Source of the DNA: Escherichia phage Baret | Sequence record: OR896834.1 | Reading direction: 5' to 3' (one strand) | Length of the DNA: 64,000 bases | Notes under the pieces: generated by a model | The model's database searches: none | What the model saw: the letters and a program-made list of their open reading frames with translations, nothing else | What the model was told of the DNA's origin: nothing | Made by a program: the position numbers and the translations under genes | In this document: positions 38,757 through 41,461 of the stretch, in pieces | How positions within the stretch are numbered: the stretch's first letter is position 1 | Layout: every line of letters begins with the position of its first letter

Positions 38757-39524
38757 TTATTCAGCAGCCGCAGCTTTTGCATCCAGTTTAGCACGCTTAG
38801 CGGCACCATCATAGTCCTTAGCAACCAGACCACGACGAGACAACATAGATTTAACACCACGCTCAGACTTACCAGTTTTCTCAGCGATCTCAGCAACGGT
38901 CATGTTAACCAGATCCAGACCTTCTAGCAGATCTTCACGAGTTTTAGCACTTGAAGTTTCCTGTACCGGCATAGCAGCGATACGACCTTCACGAAGCAGG
39001 CTCAGAGCTTTACCACGGATCTGCTTGATATTACGACCGAAGTGAGCAGCGATAGCTTCAATAGTAGCTCCAGCAACAACCTGATTAACAAAATCGGTTT
39101 CTTCATCAGGAGTGAAGGAACGAACAGCAGCAGCTTTTTCAGTTGGTTTAACAGAGGCGGTCATTTCCAGACTCAGGATCTTACCCTGTACCTGCTTAGC
39201 ACCAAATTGACCACCAGCTACAGCAGCAGCGATTTCAGCATAAGTATACTGACCAGCATGAGCGTTCAGGAAATCAACCAGTTCAGCTTCCTGCTCAGGA
39301 GTCCATGGGGATTTCTGTACTTCGTTAGCTTTCTGTACTTCAAAACCTTCTTTACGCAGTTTAGAGCCAACAGAGCGAGCAGTAACATCTTTGCCAGTTT
39401 CAGCAGCCAGTTCAGCAGCAATAGCAGCTACTTGTTCTTGAGAGATTACAGAAACACCCAGAGCGGTGGCTTTTGCTTTCAGAGACTCGGTTACACCTTC
39501 TACGTTCCAGTTCAGTTTAGACAT
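38757..39524 (-). CDS. DNA-binding protein with four repeated helix-turn-helix-like modules (D5-like, putative)
   Basis: 255 aa, Ala-rich, four ~55-aa internal repeats each with T.AEIA...GK...LS signature; high-expression codon bias. Confidence 0.5.
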   Translation of the reverse strand: MSKLNWNVEGVTESLKAKATALGVSVISQEQVAAIAAELAAETGKDVTARSVGSKLRKEGFEVQKANEVQKSPWTPEQEAELVDFLNAHAGQYTYAEIAAAVAGGQFGAKQVQGKILSLEMTASVKPTEKAAAVRSFTPDEETDFVNQVVAGATIEAIAAHFGRNIKQIRGKALSLLREGRIAAMPVQETSSAKTREDLLEGLDLVNMTVAEIAEKTGKSERGVKSMLSRRGLVAKDYDGAAKRAKLDAKAAAAE

Positions 39525-40287
39525 TATTATTTTTCTCCAATAGTTCTTTAATCGACAGGATTTCTATCCCATTCGTTTCGGCTTTCTTATAAGATGAGGA
39601 AGAACGCTTCGATTCATCCTCACAGATTAGGTATTTGACGTCTTTGGTAACGGATTTCTTAACCGTGTATCCTAGACCTTCTAAATAGTTTGTTGCATCC
39701 GTTCGGTTTGCAAAGTCTTGCAAAGATCCGGTAATACATACCGCGATTCCATTTGGCTGGGCAACTAAATCATCAGTAACGACGGTTTTAGCTTTAGCAC
39801 CAGTTGAGAATTTCCACGGTAATTCGATAACATCCTTGCCTTGTGGGGAATTTAGCCAGGCTTTATAGTTTTCTCCAGCCTTGCCGTCAGCCTTCACATC
39901 GTGAAAGCCAGTGCAATTTTGGGATAATTTCTTTGCTGCAACCTCTCCAATTAGAGGGATTCCTAAAGAACCGAGAACTGAACCAAAGTCAATGTCTCCG
40001 CGAACTTTAGTATTTAATTCGCTAATTAACTTAGCGGCAACCTTGCTACCCACGGCTCTAACCAAATCTTCTTCGGTTAGGTAAAATAGTTCTGAAATCT
40101 TCGTCAGCTCCAGCTTCTCAATAGTTTTCGGGCCAAAGCCCTTTAACTTCATTTTTGTACAGAAGTTCTCAATTAACTTACTTGATTGCGCTGGACAGTT
40201 GGACTTATTCCGACAGAATAATTGTCCGTTGACAAGATCTAGCTTAGAACCACAAGAGGGACATTGTGTTGGAATTTCGATTTTCAT
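39517..40287 (-). CDS. NAD-dependent DNA ligase, C-terminal segment (Zn finger + HhH + BRCT)
   Basis: CPSCGSKL...C...C zinc finger, HhH-like [13 protein letters not shown], BRCT-like C-terminus; real ATG at 40287. Confidence 0.8.
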   Translation of the reverse strand: [256 protein letters not shown]

Positions 40288-40317
40288 CAAATTTCTTCCT
40301 TATCAATTTATATAAAT

Positions 40318-40346
40318 ATTATAGCAAGTATTTAAGCATTTAGCAA
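40318..40346 (-). promoter_or_regulatory. sigma70-type early promoter (TTGCTA-17-TATAAT) in ligase inter-segment spacer
   Basis: minus-strand -10 at 40318-40323, -35 at 40341-40346. Confidence 0.65.
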
Positions 40347-40410
40347 CTACAATTTTAACTAACTTTGCTTACCCTCGCCATAACTTTCTATCCCTCAACT
40401 GAATGATAAT

Positions 40411-40439
40411 AGTATATACCTAAGCGGCGAAAATGTCAA
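40411..40439 (-). promoter_or_regulatory. sigma70-type promoter (TTGACA-17-TATACT) in ligase inter-segment spacer
   Basis: minus-strand -10 at 40411-40416, -35 at 40434-40439. Confidence 0.5.
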
Positions 40440-40489
40440 TAACCACTTTATAATTCCGATATGGTAGATGGGTAGCAAAGGGTTATGTA

Positions 40490-41461
40490 TTAATCATATA
40501 CTCGCTCTACTATGCACGGGATTACACCACCAGCACGAATCACTCGAATCTGGCAACCGATCTCTAGATCAAGAGAGTTAATATAATCAACGTTATTAAG
40601 AGTCGCTTTAACAATTGTAGCATCATCAATAATTACCGGTTCGAAATAACCAACTGGAGTTACTTTACCAGAGGCCCCTACCTGCCACTCAACTTTAGTA
40701 AGAGTAGTAATCTCACCTTCTTCATCCTCTTTAATAGCGAATGCTCCACGAGGGAATTTATTAGTCCAGCCTTCTCGGAAGAATTTGTTGTTGTCATTAA
40801 TACGAACAACTTTACCATCCGTTGGAATCCACTTAAAGAAGGAACGCACATTAACAACTGTTAAGAAATCTTCATTCTCTAGCCAAAGCATATCTTTTAA
40901 ATACGTTTCTGTAATACCTACAGATTCAGCAGAACACTGGATACCATATGCAACGAAGATTAAACCACCTTCCCCTATACGTTGTACGAAATCATCGCTA
41001 TCTTTGAGGTTAATAGCACCAGAGGCAAAGTTACGTTTATTTTCTACTTCTTTTGTAATTAGAACTTCACCAGTGATTTGAGTAGGTACTTTTTGGGAAA
41101 TCTTTTGAGGGATGTTCAGCAATCTTACGTTGCTTGTGACATCATTCCCTAGAATACCATTACCACGAGTTAGTGCTTGAACAAATTCGCCATTAATATA
41201 TAACAGAGAAATCGCACAACCATCTAACTTATCAGTTTCTACCTGACCTAATGGGTTAAACGGAGGTTTATCTCCACGATTATAATAAACTTTCTGTAAA
41301 GAATACATACGATACAGATGTGGAATATCGCCCTTAGGCCCGATCTCTTCTTCTAACGGAAATCTTTTAATCAGACGATCATATTCTTCGTCAGAGATTA
41401 AAGACATTCCCTGGTAATATGCTTCTTGGCAACGTTTAATAAAGTCTTTTACATTAGTCAT
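40490..41461 (-). CDS. NAD-dependent DNA ligase, N-terminal segment (Ia + adenylation + OB domains)
   Basis: adenylation motif KLDGCAISLLY (KxDG), NAD-binding N-terminus (SDEEYDRL), OB-fold C-terminus. Confidence 0.85.
   Translation of the reverse strand: MTNVKDFIKRCQEAYYQGMSLISDEEYDRLIKRFPLEEEIGPKGDIPHLYRMYSLQKVYYNRGDKPPFNPLGQVETDKLDGCAISLLYINGEFVQALTRGNGILGNDVTSNVRLLNIPQKISQKVPTQITGEVLITKEVENKRNFASGAINLKDSDDFVQRIGEGGLIFVAYGIQCSAESVGITETYLKDMLWLENEDFLTVVNVRSFFKWIPTDGKVVRINDNNKFFREGWTNKFPRGAFAIKEDEEGEITTLTKVEWQVGASGKVTPVGYFEPVIIDDATIVKATLNNVDYINSLDLEIGCQIRVIRAGGVIPCIVERVYD

Follow-up and report, generated by a model that had tools for sequence, protein, structure and literature searches.

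Two genes of Escherichia phage Baret probably encode the A and B subunits of a T5-type NAD-dependent DNA ligase

Phage T5 carries its nicotinamide adenine dinucleotide (NAD)-dependent DNA ligase as two genes. The T5 GenBank record (AY543070) annotates ligA (T5.116, AAS77162) and ligB (T5.117, AAS77163) as 'NAD-dependent DNA ligase subunits A and B', and a paper on the T5 D2 helicase lists both genes as ligase subunits (PMC3632103). For Providencia phage PR1, the Protein Data Bank (PDB) entry 9HU3, released on 2026-01-14, bears the title 'PR1 phage heterodimeric DNA ligase in complex with 21-mer nicked DNA containing phage nick sequence'. The split ligase is thus already known: it is annotated in the T5 record, its promoters are named there, and an orthologous heterodimer has been in the PDB since January 2026. 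A search confined to a literature collection found no paper describing 9HU3 or a heterodimeric ligase of T5 or PR1, and the retrieved passages of two reviews (PMC9503650 and PMC7824862) do not mention the split ligase. Here we analyse the corresponding locus of Escherichia phage Baret (sequence record OR896834.1), contained in a stretch of 64,000 nucleotides (nt) that we call the window. With a probability of about 0.9, two neighbouring open reading frames (ORFs) in the window are the ligA and ligB genes of a T5-like phage (Tequintavirus), whose two polypeptides together make up a single NAD+-dependent DNA ligase.

The locus is very close to that of T5. The same genes stand in the same order and on the same strand, LigA and LigB are 98.5 % and 95 % identical to their T5 counterparts, and the 202-nt spacer between the genes, with both of its promoters, is base-for-base the T5 spacer. 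The neighbours are also shared, namely D2, D3, a PC4-like gene, D5 and D6 (helicase). The difference lies in LigB, which has 259 amino acids (aa) in T5 and 256 aa here as a result of a 3-residue indel. The window phage is KS_S14-like and not T5 itself; the region is 100 % identical to that of E. coli phage KS_S14, and more than 420 Tequintavirus-like genomes match it at 90 % identity or more, many of them at about 98 %. An earlier note on this DNA, made from the sequence alone, had recognised a ligase encoded in two ORFs, had described about 200 bp between the halves with two sigma70 promoters and a ribosome-binding site (RBS), and had likened this to the annotation of ligase subunits A and B in T5-like genomes. 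The ORF list and Pfam agree with the note on coordinates and domains, both promoters and the RBS lie in the spacer as described, and the likeness to T5 is borne out by the T5 record.

Taken together, the two ORFs contain the complete domain set of an NAD-dependent ligase, that is domain Ia, the nucleotidyltransferase (NTase), the OB fold, the zinc finger (Zn), HhH and BRCT, with the last three on the second ORF. In LigA, Pfam detects DNA_ligase_aden (E-value 1.3e-23, 84 bits against a cutoff of 27) and, at residues 252-321, DNA_ligase_OB (3.6e-22). The motif I lysine, K78 in the sequence KLDG, aligns with K115 of E. coli LigA and is invariant in seven T5-like LigA proteins, while K244 of motif V corresponds to K314 of the E. 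coli enzyme in the phmmer alignment. The domain Ia motif YY...ISDEEYD (Y15-Y16...I22-S23-D24-x-x-Y27-D28) aligns with E. coli residues 29-42, and Y15, Y16, Y27 and D28 are invariant in the alignment of T5-like LigA. The residues of E. coli domain Ia that bind nicotinamide mononucleotide (NMN) are reportedly Y22, H23, D32, Y35 and D36.

LigB opens with a zinc finger of the form CxxC...Cx5C, whose cysteines C9, C12, C25 and C31 correspond in the phmmer alignment to C408, C411, C426 and C432 of E. coli LigA. All four are invariant among 24 LigB homologues of 52-99 % identity. Pfam also finds BRCT in LigB (E-value 9e-8), together with weak matches to HhH. An AlphaFold2 model built on the 24-sequence alignment has a mean predicted local distance difference test score (pLDDT) of 82.7; its top PDB match is chain B of the PR1 ligase (9hu3_B, E-value 2.2e-25), followed by E. 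coli LigA (2owo_A, 6.8e-7). Neither Pfam nor the model revealed a domain in LigB beyond Zn-HhH-BRCT. Each of the best 120 LigB homologues in a collection of 5.8 billion proteins stands alone as a protein of 190-263 aa, and many of them are named 'NAD-dependent DNA ligase subunit B'.

Aligned by phmmer with PDB sequences, LigA 214-320 matches residues 284-390 of E. coli LigA (2OWO) and LigB 3-122 matches residues 402-529, from which LigA would end near E. coli residue 393 and LigB would begin near residue 400. Judged by these alignments, the break is the linker that joins the OB fold and the zinc finger, with no residues apparently lost at the junction; the earlier note had placed the split exactly at this domain boundary. 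In place of the single polypeptide of the LigA family, the locus has a TAA after the OB fold, a spacer with multiple stops, and ligB in another frame. It has the characters of the T5 type, namely a split at the OB/Zn linker, ligB downstream on the same strand, and sequence kinship and synteny with T5. In the PDB, entries 9HU3 and 9I5I, which hold both chains, match LigA and LigB best: chain A (339 aa) matches LigA with an E-value of 8.8e-104 and chain B (248 aa, named 'DNA ligase subunit B') matches LigB with an E-value of 4.5e-81. The chain B sequence is that of Providencia phage PR1/PSTCR5 (Demerecviridae) at 100 % identity.

We surveyed the annotated loci of other Demerecviridae genera and 78 IMG/VR loci, locating the two halves by tblastn. 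Among the relatives, all those whose LigA is at least 41 % identical share the split at the OB/Zn boundary and carry ligB downstream of ligA in the same orientation, and all of them keep the order PC4-like gene, ligA, gap, ligB, D5. The gap itself varies from 52 nt to 3.8 kb. It measures 202 nt in Tequintavirus-like phages and 199 nt in Sugarlandvirus, with no ORF in either; 192 nt in Priunavirus, with an annotated terminator and promoter; 191 nt in the IMG/VR contig L042; 344 nt in Novosibvirus (Proteus), with one 55-aa ORF; and 437-443 nt in Vibrio phage 70E35.6, with one 98-aa ORF. Other Vibrio phages have gaps of 1.0-1.4 kb holding one or two small ORFs and a DprA-like ORF, a large marine metagenomic clade has gaps of 52-71 nt with a promoter and an RBS only, and single contigs reach up to 3.8 kb, with six genes in L074. 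The presence of whole genes between the halves rules out any mechanism of splicing or bypass and places the fission before the diversification of the family. On these comparisons the fission is ancient and common to all T5-family relatives examined, and the gap behaves as an ordinary intergenic region.

Distant phage ligases, at 27-30 % identity and without T5 synteny, are mixed: L083-L085 and L088 are fused, and L086/L087 and L089 are split at the same boundary, which suggests that the OB/Zn linker has been split more than once. The split distant ligases (28-30 % identity) lie on IMG/VR contigs of 39 kb (L086, 5049-5840), 20 kb (L087) and 205 kb (L089). The fused L082 (36 %/30 % identity) was considered as the nearest unsplit, ancestor-like form and rejected; it is uninformative because no CxxC is visible in its translated zinc-finger region and because it lacks T5 synteny. 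The ligase of Serratia jumbo phage 2050HW was rejected as a case of the same split, being fragmented near the N-terminus.

The spacer carries its own signals. Since it is identical to the T5 spacer, the two promoters described in the earlier note are those named P-K 28b and P-K 28a in the T5 record (hereafter P-K28b and P-K28a). They are the two top scorers of a promoter scan over 3.7 kb. Promoter-like sites are not in excess over the region as a whole (8 found against 7.9 expected from shuffles); the two spacer promoters nevertheless count, because of their top scores, their conservation in relatives and their naming in the T5 record. Compared with relatives that have diverged by 19-51 % at synonymous sites, the spacer retains 95-97 % identity and is therefore constrained. 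Of 43 distinct regions preceding ligB in split relatives, 37 contain a sigma-70 promoter matching at least 10 of 12 consensus positions, and 35 of these 37 place the -35 hexamer some 50-70 nt ahead of ligB. Among coding control windows of equal size, such a promoter occurs in 2 of 438. The marine clade has the ligA stop inside the -35 hexamer (agt tct TGA ct, giving TTGACT), followed by 17 nt and TATAAT. This arrangement is seen at L058:4940-4975 and in about 20 similar IMG/VR loci (L052-L072, L080) with gaps of 52-58 nt. An 8-codon mini-ORF, MARVSKVS, at 40362-40388 (-), which follows P-K28b and has a GAGGGA RBS, was rejected as a gene; it is probably not one because its ATG is lost in a Klebsiella phage. 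The TTGAGGGA segment of the mini-ORF region is itself conserved.

Both halves are under purifying selection, with ratios of nonsynonymous to synonymous substitution rates (dN/dS) of 0.05 and 0.13 for LigA and of 0.09 and 0.11 for LigB in unsaturated comparisons. This selection, the family-wide split and the joint structure of the PR1 orthologues on nicked DNA together support a ligase of two subunits. The earlier note had offered this as one alternative and a gene disrupted by an insertion as the other; the first is supported, an inactivated gene is not, and an insertional origin of the split is plausible. Subunit A, made up of the NMN-binding domain Ia, an NTase in which Lys78 (KLDG) would be adenylated, and the OB fold, would take adenosine monophosphate from NAD+, by homology with E. 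coli LigA and the PR1 heterodimer, both on nicked DNA. Subunit B, with its zinc finger, HhH DNA-binding domain and BRCT, would complete the protein clamp around the nick. Because A would adenylate and B would complete the clamp, nick sealing would need both subunits, associated non-covalently. Three points weigh against this reading. The requirement for both subunits is drawn from homology and from a PDB title, the structure being that of the PR1 orthologue only. The motif IV lysine, K290 of E. coli LigA, is R220 here and an arginine in seven of seven aligned T5-like LigA proteins, which on the alignment is a small departure from the E. coli enzyme. Finally, 6 of the 43 relatives, mostly Vibrio phages, have no promoter reaching 10/12 before ligB.

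Two further proposals, one on the origin of the split and one on its purpose, are add-ons to the two-subunit explanation and not replacements for it. The first draws on the genes found in the gap of some relatives. Salmonella phage SP3 (L033:4965-5606, MG387042) has there a gene for a 213-aa GIY-YIG protein (Pfam 1.1e-5), whose start lies within the final codons of ligA and which takes the place of some 35 nt of spacer. The gene occurs in 3 of 437 related records and stands beside intact P-K28b and P-K28a, and so represents a recent, secondary invasion of an already split gene. The C-terminus of SP3 LigA is altered from IPCIVERVYD to IPKIVERIYE. T5orf172 (GIY-YIG-like) genes lie in the gap of two marine contigs, L074 and L077, and the independently split L086/L087 has in its gap a 263-aa TnsA-like/NUMOD3 endonuclease (Pfam 1e-11 in L086). 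Proteus phage Stubb (L043:4953-5609) carries a gene with a NADAR domain (1.8e-31); NADAR is NAD/ADP-ribose-related, a notable neighbour for an NAD-dependent ligase. DprA-like ORFs of 186-230 aa, which form a family with only a faint Pfam signal, are found in the gap at L046:5093-5785, L050:5627-6187, L008:3885-4448 and L010:3801-4361. Mobile genes and genes related to NAD (GIY-YIG, T5orf172, NADAR, DprA-like) may have entered this gap repeatedly.

The split could be a trace left by a homing endonuclease that had inserted at the OB/Zn linker and was later lost in T5, with the promoter-bearing spacer remaining. The endonuclease genes of SP3, L074, L077 and L086 speak for such an origin, as do the precedents of nrdA (mobE), gene 60 (mobA) and gene 43 in T4-like phages (PMC2988022, PMC3045599). 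The split gene 43 has a short untranslated spacer in one phage and a seg endonuclease at the same site in another (PMC2988022); given this parallel and the gap endonucleases, an insertional origin of the T5-family split is plausible, not demonstrated. However, the SP3 gene is a latecomer, the shortest gaps (52-58 nt) consist of a promoter and an RBS only, and a tblastn search with five gap-encoded proteins from relatives found no endonuclease remnant in the window spacer. No ORF of 30 aa or more lies within its 202 nt. The earlier note had proposed looking for an intron or homing-endonuclease footprint, and by Rfam and tblastn none was found in the window spacer, despite the endonuclease genes in the gaps of relatives. 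We regard an endonuclease origin as possible but on the whole unlikely.

According to the second proposal the fission is adaptive: the promoter-bearing gap would uncouple LigB, which would be made with D5 in excess of LigA and would have a second role independent of the ligase. A promoter kept family-wide about 60 nt before ligB, its overlap with the ligA stop codon in the marine clade, the constant position of D5 immediately after ligB and a spacer more conserved than synonymous sites are all consistent with it. The promoter could, however, serve mainly D5, with ligB a passenger, and LigB shows no additional domain by Pfam or in the model; we consider the proposal doubtful. The same doubt attaches to the roles suggested for LigB, either the recruitment of partners by its BRCT domain or an action at the site-specific nicks of T5-type genomes, which it would bind or mark, although the PR1 structure contains DNA with 'the phage nick sequence'. 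If the proposal were true, the fission would be a conserved regulatory design that places LigB in a separate ligB-D5 expression unit, independent of the level of LigA.

The remaining explanations compete with the two-subunit ligase directly. A decaying pseudogene, broken by an insertion and left with one or both halves inactive while the host LigA substitutes, would fit with an interruption of what is one polypeptide in all bacteria (L011; 2OWO), and T7 and other phages can rely on host ligase (bioRxiv 10.64898/2026.09.21.753257). However, both ORFs are intact in more than 430 close genomes and in relatives down to 41 % identity, dN/dS is 0.05-0.13 in the two halves, Lys78, the domain Ia residues and the four zinc cysteines are all conserved, and the structure of the PR1 pair is that of a heterodimer on nicked DNA. 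With such conservation and selection, and with that structure, decay is excluded for practical purposes, and we rate it as very improbable.

Still less probable is that the halves are joined into a full-length LigA, whether through a frameshift, a group I intron or ribosomal bypass as in T4 gene 60. The halves do abut without missing residues relative to E. coli LigA, and introns and bypass elements do occur in phage genes (PMC2988022). Against joining, no Rfam family, introns included, matches 39300-41700 at an E-value of 1 or below; seven ligA-frame stops, the ligA stop counted, cross the spacer region; and ligB lies in a different frame, with its own RBS, start codon and promoters. An in-frame TAA at 40300-40302, 15 nt before the ligB ATG and overlapping the RBS, closes the ligB frame upstream. 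The gap of relatives holds one to six complete genes over its range of 52 nt to 3.8 kb, and the PDB entry shows two separate chains. Splicing or a frameshift, which the earlier note had named as evidence that would overturn its reading, thus leaves no signal in the Rfam scan, the stops or the frames. That errors of sequencing or assembly created the split, through a spurious stop or indel, is hardly conceivable: some phage ligase annotations are fragmented, as in Serratia phage 2050HW, with nothing specific to this locus, but the same stop, 202-nt spacer and start recur in hundreds of independently sequenced genomes, three T5 records included.

The coordinates of the two ligase genes and of the features around them are collected in Table 1. 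As listed, the ligB ORF spans 39517-40290 from a TTG start, and the ATG used here follows directly, at 40287.

Table 1. Features of the ligA-ligB region (window positions)
Feature	Position	Strand	Basis and remarks
ligA, ligase subunit A (domain Ia, nucleotidyltransferase, OB)	40490-41461	-	ORF list; 323 aa, ATG start
ligB, ligase subunit B (4-Cys zinc finger, HhH, BRCT)	39517-40287	-	ORF list; 256 aa from ATG
Intergenic spacer, OB/Zn-finger break	40288-40489	-	202 nt, read directly
Promoter P-K28b, TTGACA-17-TATACT, 11/12	40411-40439	-	promoter scan; T5 'promoter P-K 28b', L004:3503-3577 = window 40385-40459
Promoter P-K28a, TTGCTA-17-TG-TATAAT, 10/12	40318-40346	-	promoter scan; T5 'promoter P-K 28a', L004:3596-3670 = window 40292-40366
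ligB RBS, AGGAAG	40295-40300	-	ends 7 nt before ATG
ligA promoter, TTGCTT-17-TATAAT	41493-41521	-	sequence read; unnamed T5 'promoter', L004:2421-2495 = window 41467-41541
D5 gene, DNA-binding protein	38757-39524	-	ORF list, T5 annotation
Terminator-like hairpin, end of PC4-like gene, before ligA promoter	41538-41566	-	12-bp stem and T-run
Strong intrinsic terminator closing the ligB-D5 unit	38711-38739	-	13-bp stem, 8 GC pairs, T-run

For the two-subunit ligase, the most economical reading of the sequence together with the T5 annotation is the following model of transcription. LigA would be expressed from its own early promoter (41521-41493). A scan of the region found no terminator after ligA, the only terminator-like hairpins being one ahead of the ligA promoter and one that follows D5, and for this reason ligB would be on read-through transcripts from ligA in addition to transcripts from the tandem P-K28b and P-K28a. 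The D5 ATG overlaps the ligB stop as ATGTCTAA at 39517-39524 (-), so that ligB and D5 are probably co-transcribed and translationally coupled; the two would form one coupled unit, terminated after D5. In all T5-family relatives examined D5 follows ligB within 0-40 nt. The D5 protein has a Sigma70_r4_2 match above the gathering score (9.6e-7, residues 204-230) along with several sub-threshold helix-turn-helix matches in Pfam. The match to sigma-70 region 4 is in keeping with the annotation of D5, a DNA-binding factor that late transcription requires.

An exact 19-nt motif, TATAATATTTATATAAATT, which comprises a -10 hexamer and the initial transcribed region, precedes both ligB (40305-40323) and ligA (41480-41498) on the minus strand. 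Further copies lie at 31190-31208, 31291-31309, 47280-47298 and 50686-50704 (-) and at 9620-9638, 62425-62443 and 63752-63770 (+), the pair near 31.2 kb being in tandem, 101 nt apart. The window thus holds 9 copies at up to 3 mismatches compared with 0.18 expected. A duplication specific to the ligase genes was considered and rejected, the motif belonging to this wider set of sites; it looks like a -10/downstream module shared by T5 early promoters. The T5 promoter P-N25, located before D2 (43014-43718), has its counterpart in the window at about 43728-43795 (-). Its -10 and downstream region are identical in the two phages, whereas the -35 and spacer have diverged (T5 TTGCTTTCAGGAAAATTTTTCTG, window TTGCATAGTGCAAAAAATTTCTG).

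Upstream of ligA, the PC4/p15-like gene at 41549-41857 (-) encodes a protein of the fold of a transcriptional coactivator that binds single-stranded DNA (Pfam PC4, 8e-8), and its synteny with ligA is kept throughout the T5 family. Many close relatives have an extra segment of 179 bp or 272 bp between this gene and ligA (L001:3563-3835, L002:3555-3743; window about 41462-41548). The segment carries a 62-90-aa ORF of no known family and is absent from the window and from T5. These insertions were rejected as insertions into the spacer, since they are located upstream of ligA.

The locus gives a textbook-like illustration of how a multidomain enzyme can be divided at the linker between two domains. 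The details added by the survey, namely a family-wide promoter in the gap, gap lengths from 52 nt to 3.8 kb and repeated invasion by endonuclease and accessory genes, are incremental but may be useful for studies of gene fission or of T5 replication. The PR1 ligase (9HU3, 9I5I) is an orthologous pair at 54-56 % identity, split at the same boundary, with a 192-nt gap, promoters at equivalent positions, and A and B chains solved on nicked DNA. It differs in belonging to the genus Priunavirus and in having an annotated terminator after ligA, where the window has none. E. coli LigA (2OWO, on nicked DNA-adenylate) shares the domain order Ia, NTase, OB, Zn, HhH, BRCT, as well as KxDG, motif V, the domain Ia motif and the zinc cysteines. 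In contrast to the phage enzyme, with 323 and 256 aa in two genes, it is one polypeptide of 671 aa; identity is about 25-30 %, and the phage domain Ia and NTase are each about 35 residues shorter.

The nearest parallels from another phage family are the split genes of T4-like phages: Aeh1 nrdA (mobE), T4 gene 39/60 and gene 43A/43B of phages 25 and 44RR (PMC2988022, PMC3045599). There, as here, a replication enzyme is made as two polypeptides that reassemble, and the gap is either a short spacer or a homing endonuclease, as in the comparison of T5 with SP3. The enzymes and the phage family are different, and the window gap contains no endonuclease. The ligase split is furthermore family-wide and old, located at a natural linker, and accompanied by a conserved promoter.

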